62,497 bases of DNA from Clostridiales bacterium (GTDB lineage: Bacteria > Bacillota > Clostridia > UBA1381). Below, in pieces: positions 20,003-62,438 of the stretch (position 1 is its first letter; each line of letters begins with the position of its first letter). Where the stretch lies: the NCBI GenBank assembly GCA_029226065.1, contig JAQXXM010000060.1:1-62497 (forward strand). Direction: 5' to 3'. The notes under the pieces were generated by a model. It ran no database searches and had not been told where the DNA came from. It was given only the letters and a program-made list of their open reading frames with translations. The position numbers and the translations under genes are program-made.

Positions 20003-20265
20003 CAAAAAAATCCCAAGCAAATACAATGTATCTGCTCAGGAGTGCTTTTTTACACGGTTCCATCCTGATTACGGCTACAGTGCCGTCACTTAATTCATCT
20101 TTAACGCAGATTTACGGTGGATTTACTAAGGCATATTGCCCGTTCTGCCACTGCTCCAAAGTGGTATTCACTAATATTGTTTATAGGAATATTTACAGCC
20201 ACGATATTCCCTCTCTTGATAAACATTTATATCAGCTACTGTCTTTTTCATAGCAATTTAACTTT
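20003..20265 (-). promoter_or_regulatory. T-box riboswitch leader (Thr, ACC specifier) controlling thrS
   Basis: Minus strand carries an AGAGAG box (20211-20216) and GAAUACCAC with ACC at 20163-20165. The T-box sequence AAUCAGGAUGGAACCGUG is at 20053-20070. The terminator CCUGAGCAGAUAC/GUAUUUGCUUGGG plus U7 is at 20003-20040. Confidence 0.8.
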
Positions 20266-51186: not shown

Positions 51187-51963
51187 TTACATAAAAATGT
51201 CAATATTATTTACCATTTCTTTTTCGGTTATAAATCGTTTTATTTTGCCGTTATTGTCTAATTCCACACCGATTGTAGTGTATGACGGAGTAATATTTTT
51301 TATAGCATCGCTTATTGTATAATCAGGAGATATAATTACAAAATTAGTTTTGTTTGTGTTTTTCTTTCTGGCATTTACTGCATTAATGAAGTCATAATCG
51401 TACAACTCTTTGGCGGTAAGTATATTTCCTATGAGTAAAACAGCTATAATAAAGAGCGAAATATTTATAATGCCTACATACATAAGGTAAACGGCTACAG
51501 ATAGGAATATTATGCCTATTATCACAGAGAAAACATTTAATATTTTTTTTGCACGTCTTCTGCCGGTATAATGCGAAATAACCCTCAATAATATCATACC
51601 GCCGTCAAGAGGAACAACAGGCAATACATTAAGAATAAACAGCACTGTATTTATATTATACAAGATTGGTATTTTAAGTATAATGCCCACTATTGATAAA
51701 ATTGCATTAAATGCAGGGCCTACGCCATAAAGGATTAATTCCTCTGCAAAAGAGTTGACTATTTTGTTTTTTAACTGTAAATGTGCGCCAAATGGAGATA
51801 ATGTAAAGCTCTCACATTCTAATCCTATACACTTTGCCGCACAGTAGTGCGCAAGTTCATGGAGAGTCATAACTGTATATGTCATTATATATATTTTTGC
51901 ATTGCCCATTGCAGTCAGAACGGCAAACATTACTATAGTCAAAGGATTAATCTTAATTTTCAT
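51187..51963 (-). CDS. Site-2 protease family M50 metallopeptidase (SpoIVFB-like)
   Basis: HELAH zinc motif in TM2, NVLPVVPLDGG motif, multiple TM segments and a soluble C-terminal domain. Confidence 0.65.
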   Translation of the reverse strand: MKIKINPLTIVMFAVLTAMGNAKIYIMTYTVMTLHELAHYCAAKCIGLECESFTLSPFGAHLQLKNKIVNSFAEELILYGVGPAFNAILSIVGIILKIPILYNINTVLFILNVLPVVPLDGGMILLRVISHYTGRRRAKKILNVFSVIIGIIFLSVAVYLMYVGIINISLFIIAVLLIGNILTAKELYDYDFINAVNARKKNTNKTNFVIISPDYTISDAIKNITPSYTTIGVELDNNGKIKRFITEKEMVNNIDIFM

Positions 51964-52052
51964 TTATCATCACCGATACATTATATTGAAAAATAACATT
52001 CTTAATTCCCTTTTTATAGCTATTGTCATATTATACTATGAGGTGTTAAGAT

Positions 52053-52517
52053 ATGGAAAGAAAGAAAACAGTAATAAATGCAATTGCAAAAATAGAAGGT
52101 GGTAACGGATACCCCGATTTGAATGGAACAGCAAGCTTTGTCCAGACCAAAGAAGGTGTTTTAGTTACTGTTAAGGTCAACAAGCTCCCGCAAAATTCGA
52201 CGTGTAACGGCGGAATATATGCGCTACATATACATGACGGCGAAAGCTGTACAGGAACAAAAGCGGATCAGTTTAGTAATGCAAAGACACATTATAACCC
52301 GCTAAACTGTCCTCATCCATACCATGCAGGCGATTTACCACCGCTTATCGGCAATGACGGAATTGCATATATGTCATTGCTTACAAATCGTTTTACAGTG
52401 GATGAAATTATCAATAAAGTAATCGTAATTCATGCAAACAAAGACGATTTCACAACACAACCCTCCGGCAATGCCGGCACAAAAATAGGTTGCGGAAAGA
52501 TATTGCGTCAATGGTAG
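52053..52517 (+). CDS. sodC: Cu,Zn superoxide dismutase family protein with no signal peptide
   Basis: Full ligand set by position: HIH, THYNP, HP, HAGDLP, VIHANKDD, plus the disulfide cysteines (ESC, GCG). Confidence 0.8.
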   Translation: MERKKTVINAIAKIEGGNGYPDLNGTASFVQTKEGVLVTVKVNKLPQNSTCNGGIYALHIHDGESCTGTKADQFSNAKTHYNPLNCPHPYHAGDLPPLIGNDGIAYMSLLTNRFTVDEIINKVIVIHANKDDFTTQPSGNAGTKIGCGKILRQW

Positions 52518-52527
52518 ATTACAGAAC

Positions 52528-52563
52528 AAAAATAGTGTCCGCATTCTTGCGGACACTATTTTT
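52528..52563. terminator. Bidirectional rho-independent terminator
   Basis: AAAAATAGTGTCCGC / GCGGACACTATTTTT perfect 15-bp arms with a 6-nt loop, between convergent sodC and serA. Confidence 0.85.
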
Positions 52564-52573
52564 GTTTATCTCT

Positions 52574-53731
52574 TTATTTTATAACTCTGACAGATATAAC
52601 CTCGTCAAGAGCTTCTAATGTTTCAACAATATCAGGTGTTACAGCATGGTCTGTATTAATTATTGTATAAGCATAATCACCCTTTGACTTATTAATCATC
52701 TCAGCAATGTTTACGCCCTTTAATACGTCAGTGTACTTTGCAATCATATTCGGAACGTTCTTATGGATTATAGTAATACGTCCCACAGTATCGCAAGGCA
52801 ATGAACAGTTAGGAAAGTTTACTGAATTGACAATGTCGCCTGTTTCAAGGAACGACTTGATTTCGTCAGCTGCCATTACCGCACAGTTATCCTCAGATTC
52901 TTCTGTTGATGCACCAAGATGCGGTATCGCAATTATCCCAGGCTGGTTGATTGTTTCAGCATCGGGGAAATCAACAACGTATGTTTTAACTTTACCTGAT
53001 GCTAAACCTGCCTTAACAGCGTCGTTGTTTACAAGACCGCCTCTTGCGTAGTTAAGAATAACAACTCCGTCCTTCATCATATCAATCGCTTCAGCATTAA
53101 TTGTGTCACGAGTTGAATCCATTAATGGTACGTGCACCGTTATATAATCACTATCTGTAAATATGCTCTTGATATCCGATACGCAGTTTACACGACGGTT
53201 AAGCATTAATGCGTTATTAACACTCAAATAAGGGTCATATCCCACAACGTTCATACCAAGGTGTACTGCAGCATTAGCAACAAGTATACCGATAGCGCCA
53301 AGGCCTATAACGCCAAGTGTTTTACCCTTTATTTCATTACCGCCAAAGTTTGACTTGCCCTTTTCTACTTGCTTAGCAATATCATCACCTGTAAGTGTGT
53401 TTGCCCATGCGTTACCGCCGATTACATCTCTTGATGCAAGAAGCATACCAAGGATTACAAGCTCTTTAACAGCATTTGCATTAGCACCAGGAGTATTGAA
53501 TACTACAATACCGTTTTCTGTGCACTTGTCAATAGGAATGTTGTTTGTTCCTGCACCTGCACGGGCAACAGCCTTTAATGACTTTGGTAGCTCCATATCA
53601 TGCATCTTAAAGCTTCTTAAGATAATTCCGTCTACATCAGCTGATGCATCATCTGTAATAGCATAATTGTCACCCAAACGGTCAAGACCGCAGGATGCTA
53701 TTTTGTTTAGTGTAAGTATATTATACATCAC
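52574..53731 (-). CDS. serA: D-3-phosphoglycerate dehydrogenase
   Basis: NAD motif GVIGLGAIG, the 2-hydroxyacid dehydrogenase catalytic region and a C-terminal ACT-like tail. Overlaps serC by 4 nt. Confidence 0.85.
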   Translation of the reverse strand: MMYNILTLNKIASCGLDRLGDNYAITDDASADVDGIILRSFKMHDMELPKSLKAVARAGAGTNNIPIDKCTENGIVVFNTPGANANAVKELVILGMLLASRDVIGGNAWANTLTGDDIAKQVEKGKSNFGGNEIKGKTLGVIGLGAIGILVANAAVHLGMNVVGYDPYLSVNNALMLNRRVNCVSDIKSIFTDSDYITVHVPLMDSTRDTINAEAIDMMKDGVVILNYARGGLVNNDAVKAGLASGKVKTYVVDFPDAETINQPGIIAIPHLGASTEESEDNCAVMAADEIKSFLETGDIVNSVNFPNCSLPCDTVGRITIIHKNVPNMIAKYTDVLKGVNIAEMINKSKGDYAYTIINTDHAVTPDIVETLEALDEVISVRVIK

Positions 53732-54813
53732 ATATTCTCCTGTTCAAATTTTTTCATAAACTCTACAAGCGTTTTTACACCTTCAACAGGCATAGCGTTA
53801 TAGATTGATGCTCTCATACCGCCTACTGTTCTATGTCCCTTAAGGTTTACAAGACCTGCGGCTGTTGCTTCCTTAACGAACTTCGCATCAAGATCAGCAT
53901 CGCCTGTTACAAACGGTACATTCATAAGCGAACGGTCCTCTTTTTCAACTGTGCCTTTGAAAAGCTTTGACGAATCAAGGAAATCATAAAGAAGCTTTGC
54001 CTTTTCTTCGTTAACCTTCTGCACTGCAGCTATACCGCCCTGTTCCTTTATCCATTCAAGAACAAGCTTAAGAATGTATATAGCATACGTCGGAGGAGTA
54101 TTGTAAAGCGAATCATTATCTGCGTGTGTTTTATATGTAAGCATTGTCGGAGTACCCTCCATAGGCTCGCCTATTAAATCCTCACGTGCAATAACAAGTA
54201 CAACGCCCGCAGGACCAAGGTTTTTCTGCGCACCTGCAAAAAGCAAACCAAACTTTGATACATCTATTACTTCGCTCATTACGTTCGATGAAATATCAGC
54301 TACAAGAGTTGCCTCTGTTTCGGGAAGCTTAGTATAGCGTGTTCCGTATATTGTGTTGTTAAAGCATATATAACAATAGTCAACTTCATCTTTTGAAGAG
54401 AAATCAGCTGCTGTAGTTTTAGGAATATATGAAAACGTCTTATCAGCAGATGATGCTACTCTGTTTACCTTAATATACTTTTCAGCCTCCTGAGCAGCTT
54501 TTTTAGCCCACTGACCTGTTATAATATAGTCAGCAGCTTTACACTTGATACCAAGGTTTAACGGTACCATTGCAAATTGCGTTGAACCGCCGCCCTGTAC
54601 AAACATAACCTTGTAGTTGTCAGGTACATTCATAAGCTCACGAACAAGTGCCTCAGCACCCTTTATAATTTTATCGTAATCTTTTGAACGATGGCTCATC
54701 TCCATAACCGACATTCCACTGTCACCACATTCAAGCATTTCAGCTTGTGCTTTTTTCAGCACTTCTTCGGGTAACATTGACGGACCTGCCGAAAAATTGT
54801 ATACTCTACTCAT
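53728..54813 (-). CDS. serC: Phosphoserine aminotransferase
   Basis: N-terminal YNFSAGPS and the class V aminotransferase PLP region (GAQKNLGP). 361 aa. Confidence 0.9.
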   Translation of the reverse strand: MSRVYNFSAGPSMLPEEVLKKAQAEMLECGDSGMSVMEMSHRSKDYDKIIKGAEALVRELMNVPDNYKVMFVQGGGSTQFAMVPLNLGIKCKAADYIITGQWAKKAAQEAEKYIKVNRVASSADKTFSYIPKTTAADFSSKDEVDYCYICFNNTIYGTRYTKLPETEATLVADISSNVMSEVIDVSKFGLLFAGAQKNLGPAGVVLVIAREDLIGEPMEGTPTMLTYKTHADNDSLYNTPPTYAIYILKLVLEWIKEQGGIAAVQKVNEEKAKLLYDFLDSSKLFKGTVEKEDRSLMNVPFVTGDADLDAKFVKEATAAGLVNLKGHRTVGGMRASIYNAMPVEGVKTLVEFMKKFEQENM

Positions 54814-54927
54814 TTTTGATAACCTCCATTAATATAAGTATAACGTATATTATACACCCCCCGAACTATATAAGTCAATACTTTTTAGCAAGATTAGTTA
54901 AAATTTATGCAAATTTTTTAAAAAATA

Positions 54928-55620
54928 TCATTTTTTTGCTTTACAAACTGCATTTGCTATAGAAAACGCAATTTTTGATTGATATGCATCATCATTCAAC
55001 AACTTTTCTTCGTCAGGATTTGAAATAAATCCACATTCAATAAGTATTGATGGCGGAGTAGGATTTTTCATCAGGTAGAGTGTGTCTGATGCGGCTTTTA
55101 CAGTATGGGTTTTTGCACCTGTAAGTTCTGCAATTTCTTCTTGTATTAATTCTGCTAATGGTTGGATTTCCGGATGATTTCGTGAATAGAATATATGAAG
55201 ACCGCTCGTTTTAGGCTTACTGAATGAATTTAAGTGGATAGACAGAAACAAATCTGCATCACTGTTGTTTATGATATCTAACCGCTTGTGCATATCTGAT
55301 ACTTTCATATCGTGTAATGTTTTTGCGGATTTATCACAAATGGAGTTATTATCAGACCGTGTCATAATAACTTTTATACCACGATTTTCAAGTATTTCTT
55401 GTAATTTTTGGGTTATTTTTAAGTTTATACTCTGTTCTATTGTCCCGTTTGCTCCAACAGCACCGCCATCAGGCTCGCCATGCCCTGCATCAAGAACAAC
55501 CGCATACTGCTTTGATTTAGAAAATGTCTGAGTTGTTTTTAAGCAGTAACCAACCACTGCACAGATGACTGTCACAGAAATTACTACGGCAATCCATTTA
55601 TTTTTCAAATTAATAACCAT
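54928..55620 (-). CDS. cwlD: N-acetylmuramoyl-L-alanine amidase, CwlD type (germination-specific)
   Basis: N-terminal anchor and amidase_3 motifs (LDAGHGEPDGGA, SIHLNS, ECGF.SN). 230 aa. Confidence 0.75.
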   Translation of the reverse strand: MVINLKNKWIAVVISVTVICAVVGYCLKTTQTFSKSKQYAVVLDAGHGEPDGGAVGANGTIEQSINLKITQKLQEILENRGIKVIMTRSDNNSICDKSAKTLHDMKVSDMHKRLDIINNSDADLFLSIHLNSFSKPKTSGLHIFYSRNHPEIQPLAELIQEEIAELTGAKTHTVKAASDTLYLMKNPTPPSILIECGFISNPDEEKLLNDDAYQSKIAFSIANAVCKAKK

Positions 55621-55691
55621 ATCATCACCGATATATCATATTAAAAAATAAAGCAAATAAGACCAAAATAAAAATAATTCAGAAAAAAGTA

Positions 55692-55720
55692 TTGACAAAT
55701 GAATATAATTGTGCTATAAT
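55692..55720 (+). promoter_or_regulatory. Consensus sigma-A promoter for tRNA-Met
   Basis: TTGACA (55692-55697), 17 nt, TATAAT (55715-55720), 20 nt upstream of the tRNA 5' end. Confidence 0.7.
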
Positions 55721-55740
55721 ATCCTATGTTGTTAATAAAT

Positions 55741-55816
55741 AGCGGGGTAGAGCAGCTGGCAGCTCGCAAGGCTCATAACCTTGAGGTCGGAGGTTCAAGT
55801 CCTCCTCCCGCACCCA
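55741..55816 (+). tRNA. tRNA-Met (CAU), initiator-like
   Basis: Hand-folded 76-nt cloverleaf. Acceptor 2-7/66-71, D stem GAGC/GCTC, anticodon stem CAAGG/CCTTG with loop CTCATAA, T arm GGAGG-TTCAAGT-CCTCC, encoded CCA. Strong resemblance to E. coli tRNA-fMet. Confidence 0.9.
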
Positions 55817-55927
55817 AATAAGACTGACTATTTTGATAGAATAGTCGGTCTTTTCTTTTTATCTTAAAAACGCTCAAATATTGCCATATTGCGGTATTTT
55901 ACGGTTTTTTCAAATCTTTATGAATAA
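55815..55927 (+). repeat. Direct repeat, left copy (113 bp), starting in the last 2 nt of tRNA-Met
   Basis: By-eye alignment to 60347-60459: about 105/113 identical with three small indels. Confidence 0.85.
55820..55860 (+). terminator. Rho-independent terminator after tRNA-Met
   Basis: AAGACTGACTATT / AATAGTCGGTCTT stem (one G-U pair) followed by TTTCTTTTT. Confidence 0.8.
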
Positions 55928-55954
55928 TCAAGAATAACGGTAAGAACTGATTGA

Positions 55955-56740
55955 TTATTTATCGAGCATTTTTTTATTCTGTCGGTATTCTGTTGCTGTC
56001 ATTCCTGTCATTTTCTTAAAATAGCGGCAAAAATAGCTTTCATCACCAAAACCCGAAAGTTCTGAAATCTGTGGAATAGAATAGTAATCCGATACAATAA
56101 GTTCTTTCGCTCTTGAAAGCTTGAGCTCATTTATGTATTTTATCGGAGTGGTATTTTTGCTTTTTAAAAAAATATTTCTCAAATAGGTCGTACTTATACC
56201 GCATAAAATTGCAAGATGCTCTACGCTTATATTTTCAGATGTATAGTTTTTGTGAATGTATTCCAATGCCGGTGCAATAATTTTTTCTGTGCTTTTTGGC
56301 ATATACTTTTTTTCGTATTTGTAGAGCATAGAGCAGATTACAGAATACAAATTTGCTTTGCACTGCATTTCGTATCCGTATGACTTCAAACGAAATGCTT
56401 TTTCAGCAGACTTGAACTTGTCTGTTACCAAATCACCTATATTTAAAACAAACGGCTCAAAAGAAACAGTATCGGCGATTTTGAAATTTATGGCGTAACA
56501 ATCTCCCGGACACGTCATTTCTACAATATAGTTTGAATGCTCCGGCATAAAAATTATATCATTCTTTCCGGTGTGAAGTATATTCCTCCCCTCAAATGTA
56601 TACTTTTTGTTACCGGATATATGTAAAGCCAAACCGTGTGAAGCTCTGTTTTTGTGAACAGTGTCGCCCTCTCCTTTTGGAACATAACACGCAAGAACTA
56701 TTCTTTCTATATTAAAATTGTAGTCAAAAAAATTTTTCAT
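55955..56740 (-). CDS. AraC-family transcriptional regulator
   Basis: Cupin-like N-terminal sensor domain and C-terminal double HTH (ISELSGFGDESYFCRYFKKMTGMTATEYR). Start trimmed to MKNFFDY, 10 nt after AGGAGG; the track start would lie inside the promoter. Confidence 0.85.
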   Translation of the reverse strand: MKNFFDYNFNIERIVLACYVPKGEGDTVHKNRASHGLALHISGNKKYTFEGRNILHTGKNDIIFMPEHSNYIVEMTCPGDCYAINFKIADTVSFEPFVLNIGDLVTDKFKSAEKAFRLKSYGYEMQCKANLYSVICSMLYKYEKKYMPKSTEKIIAPALEYIHKNYTSENISVEHLAILCGISTTYLRNIFLKSKNTTPIKYINELKLSRAKELIVSDYYSIPQISELSGFGDESYFCRYFKKMTGMTATEYRQNKKMLDK

Positions 56741-56762
56741 GAGCATCATACCTCCTGTGAAT

Positions 56763-56791
56763 ATTATAACATTTTGTTTTGAAATAGTCAA
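56763..56791 (-). promoter_or_regulatory. Putative sigma-A promoter for the AraC regulator
   Basis: Minus strand reads TTGACT (56786-56791), 17 nt, TATAAT (56763-56768). Confidence 0.55.
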
Positions 56792-56809
56792 TAAGTGTTG
56801 AAATACTCA

Positions 56810-56838
56810 TTGACCAATCTATAGTTTTGCACTATTAT
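56810..56838 (+). promoter_or_regulatory. Putative sigma-A promoter for the glycyl-radical enzyme operon
   Basis: TTGACC (56810-56815), 17 nt, TATTAT (56833-56838). Flanked by two GTGTTGAAA copies (56795-56803, 56841-56849). Confidence 0.55.
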
Positions 56839-56878
56839 ATGTGTTGAAAAATTAAATATATTTCAGGGAGGATTTCAT

Positions 56879-59113
56879 ATGTTTAATCATGACAGAAAAT
56901 TTATAGAAAATAAATACCACAAAACAGACGAGCCGTTCAACCCTTATGCCAGAATGGCATATCATGGGTACGGTTACGACAAAAGCACCGGTCTTGAGGA
57001 TGAGGAAATCAGAGACGGTCTTGCAAAGCTTTATGAAAAAACAAAGGATTTGCCGCACCCTGTTGCAAAAGCCTATGCGGTCAAATATGTTCTTGAAAAT
57101 ACAAAAATAGATATAAACGAGCATGATTTCTTTGTCGGATTTTGGAGTGTAAATCGGCTTGCAAAATGCATAACTCAGGATAAATGGTATGATGAAGTCT
57201 TTGATAATATTCTTCCCGGATTAAAAGAGAAAATGCACGACATGAACGAATCCGGTGCGATTGCAATATGGCCAGATTTCGACCATGTTGTTCCCGATTG
57301 GGATTCGATATTAAAACTGGGTTTTTCGGGACTTAAAAAGCGTGCCGAAGAATACAAAGAGTTGCATAGAAACAACAATACTCTGACAGCCGAAACGGAA
57401 GCGTTTTTTGATGGAATTATAATCGAATACACTGCGATAATAGATTTAATCGACAGACTATACAAATATGCGCTGACAAAAACTCACCCAAAAGCAAAAA
57501 AGGTTACAGAATGTCTTTATCATATACGTGACGGAGCACCGCAGAATATTTACGAGGCAATGCAGGTAATCTATATTTACTTTATGATTTCGGAATGCTT
57601 TGACTCATATCAGGTAAGATCTCTCGGCAACGGTCTTGACAATACTTTGTATTCTTTTTATCAAAACGACTTAAAAAACGGTATATATACAAGGGAAGAT
57701 ATAAAAGAGCTTTTAAGATATTTTCTTATGCAATGGTCGGCAATAGGCAACTACTGGGGACAGCCATTTTATATGGGCGGCACAAATATTGACGGAAGTA
57801 CAAAATACAATGATCTTTCCTATGATATACTCGATGTCTATGACGAACTGGGAATATACAACCCCAAAATTCAAGTAAAAATCAACGAAAACACCCCGGA
57901 TAAGATCCTTTTCAAGGTATTTGACATGATACGTCGTGGTAAGAACTGCTTTGCCTGCTGTTGCGAGCCTGGCATGATGAAGGCTATTATGAGCTATGGT
58001 GCAACATACGAAGAAGCACTTAATATGGATATACGCGGTTGCTATGAAGCCGGAGTGAGAGCCAATGAAGTAGTAACCGGAACGGGCTATGTCAACGCTT
58101 TAAAATCGGTGGAATATGTATTCAGCAACGGCTTTGATTCGAGAATAGGCAAGCAACTCGGGCTCAAAACAGACGAACTGAAGGGCTTAAATACATTCGA
58201 GGACTTTTACATCGCTGTTTTAAAACAGTGGGAAAATCTTATTGAAATGACGATTGACGTATCAAAGCAGTATGAAAAATATCTCAGCTTTATCAACCCG
58301 TCAAATATGTATTCCGCAACGATTGAGGGCGCGCTGAAAAAAGGTACGGACGCATATCAAAGCGCCGTAAAATTTAATAATTCAGCTATTTTAAACTGTG
58401 GATTTGCAAGCTTTGTGGATGCGGTTATGGCGGTAAAGAAATTTGTGTACGATAAAAAAGTTGTGTCAATCCAAACACTTGCCGAGGCTCTTAATAAAAA
58501 TTGGTCAGGATTTGAAGATTTACATACACAAATACTTAAAAGTCCACACAAATACGGAAATGACGATGCCGAAACGAACAGATACGCAGAAGCAATGTCC
58601 GCATATTTTGCGTCAAAAGTAAACAACCGCCCCAATGCGCGAGGCGGTGTCTACAAGGCCATTATGCACTCGGCAATGCAGTTTGTTTGGCAGGGTGAAA
58701 AAACAGGCGCAACCCCGGATGGAAGACATGCAGGAGAAGAAATATCGAAAAATGCATCACCGTCTGTGGGAATGGACAAAAACGGAGTTACGGCATTGAT
58801 AAATTCGGCGATTAAAACAAAACCGTATAATTATATAGAAGCTCATTGTCTTGATGTTATGCTGCATCCGTCCGCAGTCAGTGGTGATGAAGGCCTTGAA
58901 ATTATGAAATCGCTGCTATTCATGTATATGAAAAACGGTGCTCAGACTGTGCAATTTAACGTGTTCAACACAGAAACGCTACGCGATGCACAAAAACACC
59001 CCGATAAATACAAAAACCTGCAAGTCAGAGTTTGCGGCTGGAATGTACTATGGAATAACCTCAGCGAGAAGGAGCAGAATGCTTATATTACACGTGCAGA
59101 GAATATAAAATGA
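56879..59113 (+). CDS. Glycyl-radical enzyme, PFL2/dehydratase-like branch, substrate unknown
   Basis: Gly loop LQVRVCGWN (Gly720), thiyl loop RGCYE (Cys388/Glu390), ATPDGR and QFNV motifs. 744 aa. GGGAGG RBS. Confidence 0.9.
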   Translation: MFNHDRKFIENKYHKTDEPFNPYARMAYHGYGYDKSTGLEDEEIRDGLAKLYEKTKDLPHPVAKAYAVKYVLENTKIDINEHDFFVGFWSVNRLAKCITQDKWYDEVFDNILPGLKEKMHDMNESGAIAIWPDFDHVVPDWDSILKLGFSGLKKRAEEYKELHRNNNTLTAETEAFFDGIIIEYTAIIDLIDRLYKYALTKTHPKAKKVTECLYHIRDGAPQNIYEAMQVIYIYFMISECFDSYQVRSLGNGLDNTLYSFYQNDLKNGIYTREDIKELLRYFLMQWSAIGNYWGQPFYMGGTNIDGSTKYNDLSYDILDVYDELGIYNPKIQVKINENTPDKILFKVFDMIRRGKNCFACCCEPGMMKAIMSYGATYEEALNMDIRGCYEAGVRANEVVTGTGYVNALKSVEYVFSNGFDSRIGKQLGLKTDELKGLNTFEDFYIAVLKQWENLIEMTIDVSKQYEKYLSFINPSNMYSATIEGALKKGTDAYQSAVKFNNSAILNCGFASFVDAVMAVKKFVYDKKVVSIQTLAEALNKNWSGFEDLHTQILKSPHKYGNDDAETNRYAEAMSAYFASKVNNRPNARGGVYKAIMHSAMQFVWQGEKTGATPDGRHAGEEISKNASPSVGMDKNGVTALINSAIKTKPYNYIEAHCLDVMLHPSAVSGDEGLEIMKSLLFMYMKNGAQTVQFNVFNTETLRDAQKHPDKYKNLQVRVCGWNVLWNNLSEKEQNAYITRAENIK

Positions 59114-59131
59114 AAAAATAGGAGAAAAATA

Positions 59132-60004
59132 ATGAAAGCAAATATAGTCGAAATCAAACGATTTGCCGTACATGACGGCGACGGAATTCGAACGACCGTG
59201 TTTTTCAAGGGTTGTCCGCTCAAATGTCTGTGGTGTCATAACCCCGAAACACTTTCACAAAAGTGGCAGCTTGCCTTTTACAGTCACAAGTGCGTTATGT
59301 GTGGAAAATGTGCGGAGGTTTGCGCTTGTCATGCGTTTTCTGAAAATATACATAGAATAGACAGAACAAAATGCACTACGTGCGGAAAGTGTGTTAATGT
59401 CTGTCCCCAAAGTGCTCTTGAAATATTCGGTACGGAAATGAGTACGGATGAAATTTGCACAACTTTGCTTAGAGATAAGGATTTCTACGCAGAGAGCGGA
59501 GGCGGAATTACATTATCGGGCGGTGAGTGTTTGCTTCAAAGCGGCGCTTGCTGTAAAATTTTAAAAAGAATGAAACAAAACGGTATAAACACAGCAGTTG
59601 ATACCTGCGGATTTGTTCCGAGAACGGCAATAGACAAGGTTATGCCATACACAGACACATTTCTGTACGATATTAAGGCGATAGATGAAGATGTGCATAT
59701 TAAATGCACCGGTCAGTCTAATAAAATTATTCTCGATAATCTTGTATATCTGGATAGCTGTGGGGCAAAAAGCGAAATACGCATTCCTTATGTATCCAAA
59801 TATAACGATGAGCAAATACCAAAAATCGCCGAATTTCTAAGCACTCTTAAAAATGTAGTCCGTGTACGGGTTTTGCCATATCACAATTATGCAGAATCAA
59901 AATACAACGCACTAAATATCAAAAATACGCTTCCGATGATTTTGCCGACAAAGGAAGAAATGGAAAAAACAAAAACAATACTATCTTCGTATGGTTTGAT
60001 ATGA
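59132..60004 (+). CDS. Glycyl-radical enzyme activating protein (radical SAM with a ferredoxin insert)
   Basis: CPLKCLWC (CxxxCxxC, C28/C32/C35) plus CVMCGKCAEVC and CTTCGKCVNVCP auxiliary cluster motifs. Starts 18 nt downstream of the GRE. Confidence 0.9.
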   Translation: MKANIVEIKRFAVHDGDGIRTTVFFKGCPLKCLWCHNPETLSQKWQLAFYSHKCVMCGKCAEVCACHAFSENIHRIDRTKCTTCGKCVNVCPQSALEIFGTEMSTDEICTTLLRDKDFYAESGGGITLSGGECLLQSGACCKILKRMKQNGINTAVDTCGFVPRTAIDKVMPYTDTFLYDIKAIDEDVHIKCTGQSNKIILDNLVYLDSCGAKSEIRIPYVSKYNDEQIPKIAEFLSTLKNVVRVRVLPYHNYAESKYNALNIKNTLPMILPTKEEMEKTKTILSSYGLI

Positions 60005-60281
60005 AAAATTTTTAATAAAGAATTGATAACGTAAAAGAAATATAAAACACAGGAGTAGCAATTTACAAGAAAAGTATTGAACAAACAGAAGTCATTTTTG
60101 AGGAGAATTAGATGACAATCCCTCATTTTATTATATAAAACACAATTTGATATATAATCTGATTAGTTTTTGTGAACCGAAAGCCGGATTTAGGCTTTTA
60201 GCCATTAATTGCAATATAGAATTAAATTGCCGGCATGTCAAGGGAGCTCTCTTACGAGGACGCATATTTACTCTTGAAATT

Positions 60282-60318
60282 ATTGCACCCCCTTAATGCA
60301 AATTGCACCCCCTTAATG
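60282..60318 (+). repeat. Two tandem copies of ATTGCACCCCCTTAATG (period 20 bp)
   Basis: 17/17 identical at 60282-60298 and 60302-60318. Confidence 0.8.
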
Positions 60319-60346
60319 AAATTCTATTAAAATATAACTTCTTTCA

Positions 60347-60459
60347 CAAATAAGACTGACTATTTTGATAGAATAGTCGGTCTTTTCTTTTTTATTAAAA
60401 ACGCTCAAATATTGCAGTATTGCGGTATTTTACGGTTTTTACAAATCCTTAATGAATAA
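60347..60459 (+). repeat. Direct repeat, right copy (113 bp), including a second copy of the tRNA terminator hairpin
   Basis: Aligns to 55815-55927. The hairpin AAGACTGACTATT/AATAGTCGGTCTT is repeated at 60351-60383. Confidence 0.85.
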
Positions 60460-60465
60460 GCAAAT

Positions 60466-60511
60466 AGTGCCGTCAAAGAGTTAATTTCTCGACGGCACTG
60501 TTATTATTTTT
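60466..60511 (+). terminator. Rho-independent terminator-like hairpin
   Basis: AGTGCCGTC / GACGGCACT 9-bp stem (60466-60474 / 60491-60499) followed by a T-rich run. Confidence 0.55.
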
Positions 60512-60607
60512 AGTAATCGTTTAATTTATATATTGGTAGTACTTCAATCCATATGAGAGTTAAATGATTGCGTGATTATATTCATAACCTTTTTGTAAAT
60601 GTCAAAT

Positions 60608-60638
60608 GAAGCGCATTGCAAAAATTGCAATGCGCTTC
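60608..60638. terminator. Palindromic hairpin downstream of the immunity-candidate gene
   Basis: GAAGCGCATTGCAA / TTGCAATGCGCTTC, perfect 14-bp arms. Confidence 0.6.
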
Positions 60639-60681
60639 TAAAAGCGAAAATAAATTATCAATATAATTTGATATCAAACTC

Positions 60682-61179
60682 TTAAAAAAGTTTTATCGTT
60701 CTATACAGTTCAAAAACATAGTAAAGACAATACAAGCTACAAAGGATAACCATTACTTTTTTTCTGCCTTGATACCTTTTTACAAATATATCAGTATAAA
60801 ATACATAATGAGCAATTACAGCAAAAAGCTTAATAAATATAATCCATAATCTACTGATAAAAATTTCAAAAAAGTTAAAAACGGATAGCAATGACAAGAT
60901 TACAGGAATTAAGCGAATCGCTGCATTGTATTGCAAAAACTCCTTATAGACCGACTTAAAGGAAACCGTTGCTTTAGAAAACAGATTGAAAATAAAATTA
61001 TCTATAATCGGTTCAATCAAAACACTGCCTATCGCCATCAATACAAGCATTAACCCATAAAATATCCCTTTAGAAAAAGATACTGAACTGATTACCACCA
61101 ACGCAGTATATGCAGCAAGAATCAAAAACGCAGCTTTATCCGTGCACTTGTATATAAAATCACGAAATTTTACGAACAT
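60682..61179 (-). CDS. Multi-pass membrane protein, candidate immunity protein for the adjacent RHS toxin tail
   Basis: 166 aa with 4-5 hydrophobic helices. Lies 65 bp downstream of the toxin ORF on the same strand. Start trimmed to MFVKF, 5 nt after GAGGA. Confidence 0.5.
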   Translation of the reverse strand: MFVKFRDFIYKCTDKAAFLILAAYTALVVISSVSFSKGIFYGLMLVLMAIGSVLIEPIIDNFIFNLFSKATVSFKSVYKEFLQYNAAIRLIPVILSLLSVFNFFEIFISRLWIIFIKLFAVIAHYVFYTDIFVKRYQGRKKVMVILCSLYCLYYVFELYRTIKLF

Positions 61180-61256
61180 TTTAATCCTCATTTCTGTTTA
61201 AAATCTTTAAGTTGAAGGTCATCGTCAAACAGAAAACTATACTTTTTTGTTGAATA

Positions 61257-62219
61257 TTATTTTTCAACATATACGATTCTATCACCAGCCTTAGCGCTTT
61301 CAAAAGAATTAGCACTAAGAATCAAACCCAAAATATTAGCAACAACATCAACATTTGGCGAAAAAATTGATGAGGCTCCAGAACTGGTAAAATCGTTCAA
61401 AACTCGCTTGCTTTCAAGTTCAGCTTCACTTTCGGATAATGGTGATAAAAAACGAAAATTGTAATTCGTATATGCCGCTTTATCAGTAGTATAATTATAA
61501 TTGTCATTATAGCCTTTATTTTTTGTCAATAATAAGCCAACCTTCGGCGATTCAAATCTAATAGGTCCATATCCTTCGTAATTTTCATATCTTTTACTGC
61601 TTCTTATCATTGCTGCTTGATAGTGTGTCGCATCCATAAATTCTGAATTTTTGTTTTTCTTTGCCCAGTTATAAATCTCACCCAACAAAGTTATTTTTAT
61701 AGCATCATCTTTTGTAAGCACAGAATCATCCACTTCAAATCCCGTTAGATCAAAAAAATTCATAGGATTTCCGATACAATACACATATAAATTATTACTT
61801 TGGCGAATCGCTAAGATGTCAATTTCAGCATATTCTCCGTCATGATCATCCCCATATATCATATTATCGGGTGTCCAATGAGAATCCGGCGAAACAAACC
61901 TCCCCAGTTCAGGGTCATAGTATCTTGCCCTTAGATATATGAATCCCGTTTCTGTATCGTAGTATTCACCGCAATAACGGAAAGGATTTGTATCTTCCTT
62001 ATCAGGATTGGTTTCTACCCCATATTCATCATATGTATACTCTTTGATAATATTTCCGGAACTGTTAACTAAGGCCGTTACATCACCGTGGTTATTGGTT
62101 ACATAGTAAGTTTTTGTTCCTTTTTTATCCTTACTATATATTATGCCCGTTACACCACGGATATAATTCGTTACATCTCCGTCCTTAATCTCGGCAATTA
62201 CATATATTCCGTCAAGCAC
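61257..62219 (-). CDS. Orphan RHS repeat-associated core fragment with a C-terminal polymorphic toxin tail (N-terminally truncated)
   Basis: YD repeats, RYYDPELGRFVSPD, then NLYVYCIGNPMNFFDLTGF, then a 160-aa tail of unknown type. The repeat frame continues upstream to an in-frame TAA at 62307-62309. Confidence 0.8.
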   Translation of the reverse strand: MLDGIYVIAEIKDGDVTNYIRGVTGIIYSKDKKGTKTYYVTNNHGDVTALVNSSGNIIKEYTYDEYGVETNPDKEDTNPFRYCGEYYDTETGFIYLRARYYDPELGRFVSPDSHWTPDNMIYGDDHDGEYAEIDILAIRQSNNLYVYCIGNPMNFFDLTGFEVDDSVLTKDDAIKITLLGEIYNWAKKNKNSEFMDATHYQAAMIRSSKRYENYEGYGPIRFESPKVGLLLTKNKGYNDNYNYTTDKAAYTNYNFRFLSPLSESEAELESKRVLNDFTSSGASSIFSPNVDVVANILGLILSANSFESAKAGDRIVYVEK

Positions 62220-62438
62220 GAAATCGGTTTTTTCGCCGTTTACGGTTTTTGATGTACGAAGTCCTGATGAATTATATTTATATTCTGCCTTGTTGAAGTT
62301 CTTTATTTATGTCAGCCTGTTTCCCCTCATGTGTTCCCCAACACTGAAAACAAACTATGCAATATTACCCACCGGAATCATCTCCATAAAGCAAATACTT
62401 TTGAGCATATTCTACAATTCATCAACTTTTATGCCTAT

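Follow-up and report, generated by a model that had tools for sequence, protein, structure and literature searches.

Mobile insertion cassettes (MICs, or transporter insertion sequences) are units of passenger genes that lack a transposase and lie between inverted repeats of the insertion sequence (IS) or Tn3 type, as in MIC231 of Bacillus cereus. Integrative elements that target tRNA genes, together with their decayed derivatives, include genomic islands, integrative and mobilizable elements (IMEs), cis-mobilizable elements (CIMEs) formed by accretion and arrays of the tycheposon type; clostridial mobilizable transposons of the Tn4451/Tn4453 type are moved by large serine recombinases. In this work we analyzed a 62,497-bp stretch of DNA from a Clostridiales bacterium (contig JAQXXM010000060.1 of assembly GCA_029226065.1; hereafter the window), in which genes for an AraC-type regulator, a glycyl-radical enzyme (GRE) and its activase lie behind a tRNA-Met gene, between two 113-bp direct repeats (R1 and R2), the second of which leads into a fragment of an RHS toxin gene (Table 1). 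Our results make it probable that the locus holds two non-autonomous elements of one family, inserted in tandem and in the same orientation after the CCA of tRNA-Met.

As in MICs, the passenger genes of the window family stand between imperfect terminal inverted repeats with no internal transposase, the same chassis bears different cargo in different copies, and one clean insertion, of the type present in the sister-lineage contig L017, is surrounded by a 5-bp direct repeat. The Tn3-family MICs of Xanthomonas, as they appear in one account, exemplify such cassettes (PMC4337579). Unlike MICs, however, the window family has no autonomous IS or transposon partner of matching termini in the collections searched (see below), inserts in a fixed orientation exactly after the CCA of tRNA and transfer-messenger RNA (tmRNA) genes, carries a functional-looking terminator hairpin in its left end and, in the window copy, has flanking 5-mers that do not match. 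With the tRNA-targeting elements it shares the site at a tRNA 3′ end, integrase-less tandem units, polymorphic occupancy and an intact tRNA, but here the repeat is not a 3′ segment of the tRNA, with which it has just CA in common, the ends are inverted repeats, and the module stands behind at least seven RNA genes and CCA-like non-tRNA sites and not behind one cognate tRNA. The small size of the units, their short inverted ends and fixed dinucleotide flank (here CA) recall Tn4451/Tn4453, as do the serine recombinase genes beside R1 in contig L027 and the MobV/RepA/serine-recombinase element that abuts the second module in most contigs; those recombinases, however, are not part of the modules, one set shows only 26% identity to the other, and a functional link was not established. 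The units thus display some defining features of MICs and of tRNA-targeting derivatives and lack others.

Our literature search returned no description of such elements, and we know of no family that combines insertion after CCA at many tRNA genes and tmRNA with fixed orientation, a terminator of its own and stacking. We tentatively raise the possibility that R is the signature of a family of cargo elements, not yet described and devoid of an enzyme, which would insert in one orientation after the CCA of practically any tRNA or tmRNA gene, bring their own terminator in place of the displaced one, stack through a CCA-like end and shuttle GRE and toxin/immunity cassettes between species of gut Clostridia. 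Readings of the locus as IS200/IS605, IS91, a group II intron, an integron attC site or a Tn7-like element were set aside on the grounds that the right end has no matching hairpin, that GTGYG, GTTRRRY and TGT termini are missing, and that no such genes are present. A group II intron domain V/VI match on the minus strand of contig L028 (180-256; E=0.004; 32.8 bits, threshold 40) was also rejected, being under threshold and outside the element, some 330 nt to the left of the R1 copy in that contig.

The tRNA-Met site was compared among contigs that carry the neighboring cwlD-serC-serA genes, which belong either to a sister lineage (L017-L026, about 93% nucleotide identity) or to the same species as the window (L015, L016, L030, L031 and L048-L051, 97-99%), and it was found in four states: empty, occupied by a different GRE element, arranged as in the window, and interrupted in the anticodon loop by another element. 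The empty site is that of L048, which is 97.8% identical to the window over 4.9 kb and in which the tRNA end ...GCACCCA is followed at once by an unrelated terminator, AAACAAAAATCC..., in full AAACAAAAATCCTGTCATAAGATAGGA, where the contig ends; since this site has no copy of the repeat, the repeat belongs to the inserted DNA and not to the flank of the tRNA. The initial annotation of the locus had taken the repeats for an att-like duplication of the tRNA flank, an idea that L048 contradicts, and had predicted an empty site consisting of tRNA-Met, one repeat and the sequence from 60460 on, of which no example was found for tRNA-Met. At the same insertion base, the sister lineage and the conspecific contigs L049-L051 carry an element of 4187 bp, whose far end in L017 reads ...AAGTTATT ACCCA ACACAAAAATCCTATCGCACGATAGGA. 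The hairpin after this end matches the AAACAAAAATCCTGTCATAAGATAGGA of L048 at 24/29 positions and at exactly the expected offset, so that, compared with the empty site, L017 has a single, well-delimited insertion of 4187 bp bordered at either end by ACCCA, a motif that occurs once in the empty site. The terminal inverted repeats of the L017 element (AATAAGACTGACTATTTTGATAGAAT and AATAACTTATATTTTGATAGAAT) have a score reached by 0/2000 shuffles. Its left end has the same hairpin as R1, with the rest of the repeat diverged (approximately 69% identity), and its cargo, which lies in the opposite orientation, is a different GRE set, the GRE, activase and AraC proteins being 24%, 39% and 35% identical to those of the window, respectively. 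The proposal that the cassette was inserted at the 3′ end of tRNA-Met is supported by our data, and the site is polymorphic within the species (empty in L048, with the other GRE element in L049-L051, and with the anticodon-loop element in L030/L031). The tRNA-Met locus is probably a hotspot for tandem members of one non-autonomous cargo-element family. The window belongs to an uncultured lineage of gut Clostridia that lacks a close species representative: among GTDB representatives, the best match of CwlD is 64-68% identical, and a scan for CwlD contigs returned only relatives at ≤68% identity, with contigs cut beside the gene, which was uninformative on the empty site.

A second, unrelated kind of insertion affects the same tRNA in L030 (4880-5060) and L031 (40-220), which are 97-98% identical to window positions 51331-55787. 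There, tRNA-Met is cut after CTCATAA by a conjugative-type element that brings a complete initiator-type tRNA-Met 40 nt further on, with a terminator of its own, direct repeats of the TACGACAA type and ArdC/LPD28 genes.

The near-identity of the 113-bp repeats reported by the initial annotation was borne out, R1 and R2 being 93% identical over their length with three 1-nt indels (MAFFT and repeat finder). The first 46 nt or so are the same in both, and the 8 positions that differ all lie 3′ of the hairpin, each copy being continuous with its own flank; an 18-mer of the repeat occurs only in R1 and R2 within the 62.5-kb window (chance expectation 0.03). The placement of tRNA-Met by ARAGORN and Rfam agrees with the earlier statement that the first copy opens with the last two bases of the gene: R1 starts on the CA of the encoded CCA, and the insertion point is ACCCA at the tRNA 3′ end (55812-55816). 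The hairpin that had been seen in both copies was found again, with 15 pairs and a T run that give it the appearance of a terminator. In R1, segment S is 60 nt long and contains 8-nt ATATTGCN repeats. Over 113 nt, R1 is 94% identical to a copy behind tRNA-Trp and 93% identical to one behind tmRNA, R2 is 93% identical to dispersed copies, and at several of the sites where R1 and R2 disagree the base is shared with other family members. R1 and R2 are no closer to each other than R1 is to copies in other genomes (93-94%), and they are homologous element ends, neither a target duplication nor a fresh duplication. Neither R nor the right arm of the GRE element (U) has a match in Rfam. The 8-nt unit (G/A)TATTGCN varies from one to three per copy across the copies of R (window 55880-55895, compared with L028, L029 and L032).

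The sequence of the hairpin is best read as that of a terminator, which could double as a recombination site. Its variants keep the pairing, with a double compensatory change in L028, a G-U-compatible change in L032 and a wobble-to-Watson-Crick change in L025 and L049-L051, and one change is disruptive (L027); this pattern was read from the sequences by inspection.

Copies of the repeat are dispersed. A scan of Joint Genome Institute (JGI) metagenomes with a 21-mer of the repeat gave six matches, three of which are true copies that begin at the last bases of RNA genes, namely tRNA-Thr (L032), tmRNA (L035) and tRNA-Trp (L036), with homology that extends past the 113 nt into the sequence downstream of R2, up to about 60591. 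The other three (L033, L034 and L037) were rejected as chance matches inside unrelated sequence. L032 and L035 share 1.9 kb at 97.7% identity, consisting of the repeat and a helix-turn-helix (HTH)/ADP-ribosylglycohydrolase gene, and have unrelated flanks. R1 with the GRE cassette was in turn found at 98.9% identity and with the same start base behind other left flanks. That of L027 resembles a degenerate tRNA-Trp and follows three serine-recombinase genes, and that of L028 is another sequence with a tRNA-like 3′ end. After the cassette, L028 has the same TCACA and hairpin as the window, followed by a segment S of the L017 type. Taken together, modules led by R stand behind tRNA-Met, initiator-type tRNA-Met (fMet), tRNA-Lys, tRNA-Ser, tRNA-Thr, tRNA-Trp and tmRNA, as well as at non-tRNA CCA sites. 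Insertion is precise and orientation-specific, at ...CCA/A of tRNA and tmRNA genes and of CCA-like sites, and the element ends are common to modules with different cargo that have spread over different tRNA and tmRNA genes and genomes. The initial annotation had reasoned that its reading would fail if the repeat were a generic intergenic one found at many unrelated loci; in a specific sense this is the case, as the repeat is dispersed over such loci, in every instance as the tRNA-proximal end of an inserted module. R with its extension has no match in the plasmid or phage collections, the hairpin core has none in viral contigs, and a search of the collected loci with an nhmmer profile built on the left end added no more diverged copies.

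The recombinase genes of L027 (1-3843) are three in a row, and the complete one encodes 534 aa with Resolvase, Recombinase and Zn-ribbon domains. They end 330 nt before the tRNA-Trp-like sequence (AGGGGTG...CCCCTGCCA) that abuts R1 and the GRE cassette, and this region may be an array neighbor, a circle junction or the missing enzyme.

The segment that starts with R2 is also found by itself. Window positions 60347-62291 recur at about 97.4% identity in ten loci with differing genomic contexts (hereafter E-core), and in the nine of these loci that reach the left end (L038-L044, L046 and L047) the homology starts at the same base. The left neighbors are tRNA-Lys, tRNA-Ser, fMet, a 3′ remnant of fMet, tmRNA and three non-tRNA sequences ending in ...CCA. 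The same start base behind such varied RNA genes indicates that R2 is the fixed, tRNA-proximal end of a separate 1.9-kb module. R2 has an extension that reaches about 60591 and includes a second hairpin (60474-60500) and a AATCGTTTAATTT motif. The RHS orphan toxin module that had been reported directly after the cassette was confirmed by TIGR03696, which matches residues 63-160 of the RHS fragment (67 bits against a cut-off of 32.5), and by the partner open reading frame (ORF). The features of an orphan Rhs toxin/immunity locus are present, i.e., the RHS core motif, a variable C-terminus and a small partner ORF, with no N-terminal RHS body, and the fragment and its 165-aa partner are a toxin/immunity pair as predicted from their sequences. 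The partner protein was found on at least 88 contigs. The near-invariance of the fragment and its partner (about 97% DNA identity, with identical partner protein) suggests recent spread among gut Clostridia.

All E-core contigs stop or diverge at 62291, within the RHS reading frame, and two alternative continuations follow. The one shared by the window and L040 gave no identification, and the commoner one, seen in most contigs, is a MobV/RepA/serine-recombinase mobilizable element that resembles one on the Pusillibacter faecalis plasmid pMM59_01 and on Campylobacter plasmids. This element (L045 1-6040; L038 1-536; plasmid matches H1-H4 and L052) encodes a MobV relaxase, RepA and a Cys-rich VLP protein, and its variable cargo is a major facilitator superfamily (MFS) pump here and aadE elsewhere. 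Elements on pMM59_01, on Subdoligranulum replicons and on Campylobacter jejuni plasmids match it at about 84-86% identity, and in Pusillibacter a 525-aa serine recombinase lies at the far end. In L038 (2500-2810) and L041, some 190 nt of foreign DNA and a 42-nt duplicate of the 3′ half of the tRNA separate an intact initiator-type tRNA-Met from the repeat. Ahead of the R-led module, these contigs thus seem to preserve what is left of a tRNA-integrating element of the classical kind, with a genuine att duplication.

Between R1 and R2 the gene content first described stands, with a divergent AraC gene, a 744-aa GRE, a 290-aa activase and about 340 bp of non-coding sequence. As also stated then, no integrase, transposase or recombinase is encoded there: domain scans found no such domains between the repeats, and the remaining ORFs had no matches. 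The compositional comparison raised by the initial annotation gave no difference, with G+C of 0.38 in the cassette and 0.365 in the flanks, and a compositional anomaly was rejected. The cargo presents the features of a GRE system (a PFL-like fold, a C-terminal glycine-radical domain and a radical-SAM activase) and resembles the GRE operons of gut anaerobes (HypD, CutC, glycerol and propanediol dehydratases) in its domain architecture, its adjacent radical-SAM activase and its AraC-type regulator. Unlike the characterized operons, however, it misses the equivalog models widely, and the enzyme is short. The best NCBIfam models of the GRE stay far under their cut-offs (HypD NF043068, 318 against 1100 bits; PFL2-3, 323 against 678) and that of the HypD activase also falls below it (NF043069, 319 against 425), which does not permit identification as HypD, although HypD (6vxc) is the closest relative in the PDB (E=4e-76). 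More than 100 homologues are 84-86% identical to the GRE and one is 94% identical, and the protein is an uncharacterized member of the PFL2/dehydratase-type enzymes. The AraC regulator did not reach any NCBIfam equivalog.

The three cargo genes also occur without the arms. In L001 they are found at 92% identity in an unrelated context that has neither R1 nor U, and in L002-L005 at 85% identity inside islands with several GRE/AraC pairs, so that the arms constitute a chassis and the genes an exchangeable cargo. The AraC-GRE-activase set of L002, L003 and L005 belongs to 20-kb islands with four to five PFL-like genes, each with its own AraC-type regulator; part of these genes are broken into fragments, and activases accompany only some of them.

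The left end of the GRE element has a counterpart on the right. U contains two TGCACCCCCT units (60284-60293 and 60304-60313) and the right inverted-repeat motif (60321-60334, minus strand), and its last 72 nt or so, with both units, match the far arm of the sister GRE element (L017 5618-5689) at 79% identity. Within the window, the 14-nt terminus core TATTTTRATAGAAT is confined to 55829(+), 60321(-) and 60361(+), which fall in the left and right ends of the GRE unit and in the left end of the module behind it, respectively. The 20-nt TGCACCCCCT unit (window 60280-60319) is present twice in the window and once in L028, and an 81-nt stretch flanked by an 11-nt direct repeat (window 60052-60132) is absent from L028 and L029.

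Under the tandem reading, module 1 would be a 4.5-kb chassis from about 55817 to 60343 (or to 60348), made of R1, the AraC/GRE/activase cargo and a right arm with the inverted terminus, and module 2 would run from 60349 with its own copy of the left end (R2), the RHS toxin fragment and the immunity-like gene. An enzyme encoded elsewhere would move the modules in trans, and the candidates for this role are a DDE-type transposase that duplicates 5 bp of the target and a site-specific recombinase whose overlap region is short. The hairpin of the element would replace the tRNA terminator displaced by the insertion, and arrays may grow since each insertion would leave a CCA-like site, whether the CCA of the tRNA or the ACCCA/TCACA at the right end of an element; the 113-bp repeats could later delete or exchange the cassette by homologous recombination. 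The pair of ACCCA sequences in L017 fits equally well a 5-bp DDE duplication, a recombinase overlap and a CCA-like sequence belonging to the right end of the element. However, the right end is TCACA in both the window and L028, whose left flanks differ (ACCCA and CACCA, respectively), and this constancy favors a CCA-like sequence as part of the right end, which would explain how the next element inserted directly behind the first.

Several observations weigh against two tandem elements. The 5 nt that flank module 1 differ (ACCCA and TCACA), and simple transposition with target duplication is thus not shown for the window copy, whose imperfect terminal inverted repeats have a score of only moderate significance, reached by 44/2000 shuffles. 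The evidence from the empty site consists of 27 nt past the tRNA, where the L048 contig ends, and the right end of module 2 was never seen, given that 62291 is the point at which all contigs stop or part ways. Searches of the window, of 52 loci and of plasmid, phage and viral collections, together with the nhmmer profile, revealed neither an autonomous member of the family nor an enzyme between such termini, the public collections having been searched non-exhaustively. Finally, L028 has the same right junction followed by different sequence past the hairpin, which recombination at the hairpin fits as well as tandem insertion does.

Such recombination is the basis of the alternative that survives best, which we nevertheless consider unlikely. 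In this Campbell-type route, a 4.5-kb circle (hairpin, S1, AraC, GRE, activase and U) would have recombined into the R of a module already resident at tRNA-Met, either site-specifically at the hairpin, whose 13-bp inverted arms and asymmetric 7-nt spacer are lox/dif-like, or by a RecA-dependent event, yielding hybrid R1/R2 copies, and the reverse excision would restore the circle. The identity of R1 and R2 through the hairpin with divergence only later agrees with this, as do the unmatched 5-nt flanks of module 1 and the arrangement of L028, where TCACA and the hairpin are followed by an L017-type S, as a hairpin crossover with a different resident module would produce. Against it, the terminus recurs in inverted form at the end of U, the junction of U with S1 expected of a circle is in none of the contigs, and the cassette encodes no recombinase. 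The sister element, which has the same ends, differs from an R-free empty site by nothing more than its own insertion, and a resident R is therefore unnecessary for entry; moreover, the G-U-compatible and compensatory changes of the hairpin (L028, L032 and L025) are typical of an RNA terminator, a role that explains its conservation without a recombinase.

An assembly chimera, in which two loci were joined through the common 46-nt hairpin and the tandem exists in no cell, appears very improbable. The window is a whole contig of a metagenome-assembled genome (MAG), R is a frequent break point of related contigs (L015 stops after 29 nt of R1, and both ends of L029 fall within the repeats), and the sequence alone would allow a switch inside the identical hairpin. 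Nevertheless, the junction of U with the hairpin recurs in L028, which was assembled independently from a different sample and has R1, the cassette, the spacer and the hairpin at 98.9% identity, which argues that the arrangement is not an artefact of this contig, and the differences between R1 and R2 past the hairpin continue into their respective flanks. As for the model of the initial annotation, a single island inserted by an integrase that was later lost, with the repeats as attL and attR derived from the native tRNA flank, it accounts for a tRNA-adjacent insertion with direct repeats around a self-contained gene set at a polymorphic site, but we regard it as hardly credible in view of an empty site with no repeat, a repeat that holds just 2 nt of the tRNA, an R2 that extends into a 1.9-kb module with copies behind numerous other RNA genes, repeats that are not each other's closest relatives, and the lack of an integrase.

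Table 1. Features of the tRNA-Met locus in the window (positions in the 62,497-bp stretch)
Feature	Position	Strand	Basis or remarks
tRNA-Met (anticodon CAT), encoded CCA	55741..55816	+	ARAGORN; Rfam RF00005, 54.6 bits; identical in sister lineage
R1, left end of GRE element	55815..55927	+	Left terminal inverted repeat 55817-55842; hairpin H 55820-55852; segment S
AraC-family regulator, 278 aa, divergent from GRE gene	55955..56791	-	Pfam HTH_18, HTH_AraC
Glycyl-radical enzyme (GRE), 744 aa	56879..59113	+	PFL-like PF02901 and Gly_radical PF01228
GRE activase, radical SAM, 290 aa	59132..60004	+	TIGR02494, 323 bits (cut-off 174); Radical_SAM and Fer4
Right arm U of GRE element, non-coding, about 340 bp	60005..60343	+	Ends in TGCACCCCCT units and right terminal inverted repeat
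TCACA, 5 nt between right end of GRE element and next module	60344..60348	+	Left counterpart ACCCA; same junction in L028
R2, left end of second module	60347..60459	+	Inverted-repeat motif 60361-60374; hairpin H 60352-60384; segment S
Second module (E-core): R2 and extension, immunity-like ORF, RHS toxin fragment	60349..62291	+	About 97.4% identity in ten loci
Immunity-like partner ORF, 165/169 aa	60682-61179	-	Small ORF beside RHS fragment
RHS C-terminal toxin fragment, 320 aa, 5′-truncated	61257-62219	-	Frame continues to 62291; TIGR03696

If the locus is indeed a tandem of cargo elements, uncharacterized GRE pathways of gut Clostridia would be swapped at tRNA genes as interchangeable units of one chassis, which would help to explain the patchy distribution of GREs at the strain level, and a near-identical toxin/immunity module would have spread recently through many contexts by means of the same kind of end. 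Targeting the position after the CCA of any tRNA, combined with a replacement terminator, would be an unusual and compact way of inserting at a safe site, and the enzyme behind such a targeting rule would be of mechanistic and possibly practical interest. For genome annotation, it would also serve as a warning that repeats at tRNA loci may be the ends of tandem elements and not att duplications.

Two further features of the window were recorded. A 32-nt direct repeat (91% identity; 51965-51996 and 55620-55651, about 3.6 kb apart) lies directly upstream of the cwlD start codon and beside the sodC/M50-peptidase intergenic region, and may be the shared leader or promoter of two sporulation-type genes. 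A T-box leader (RF00230, 101 bits), unrelated to the cassette, is located at 20035-20260 on the minus strand.

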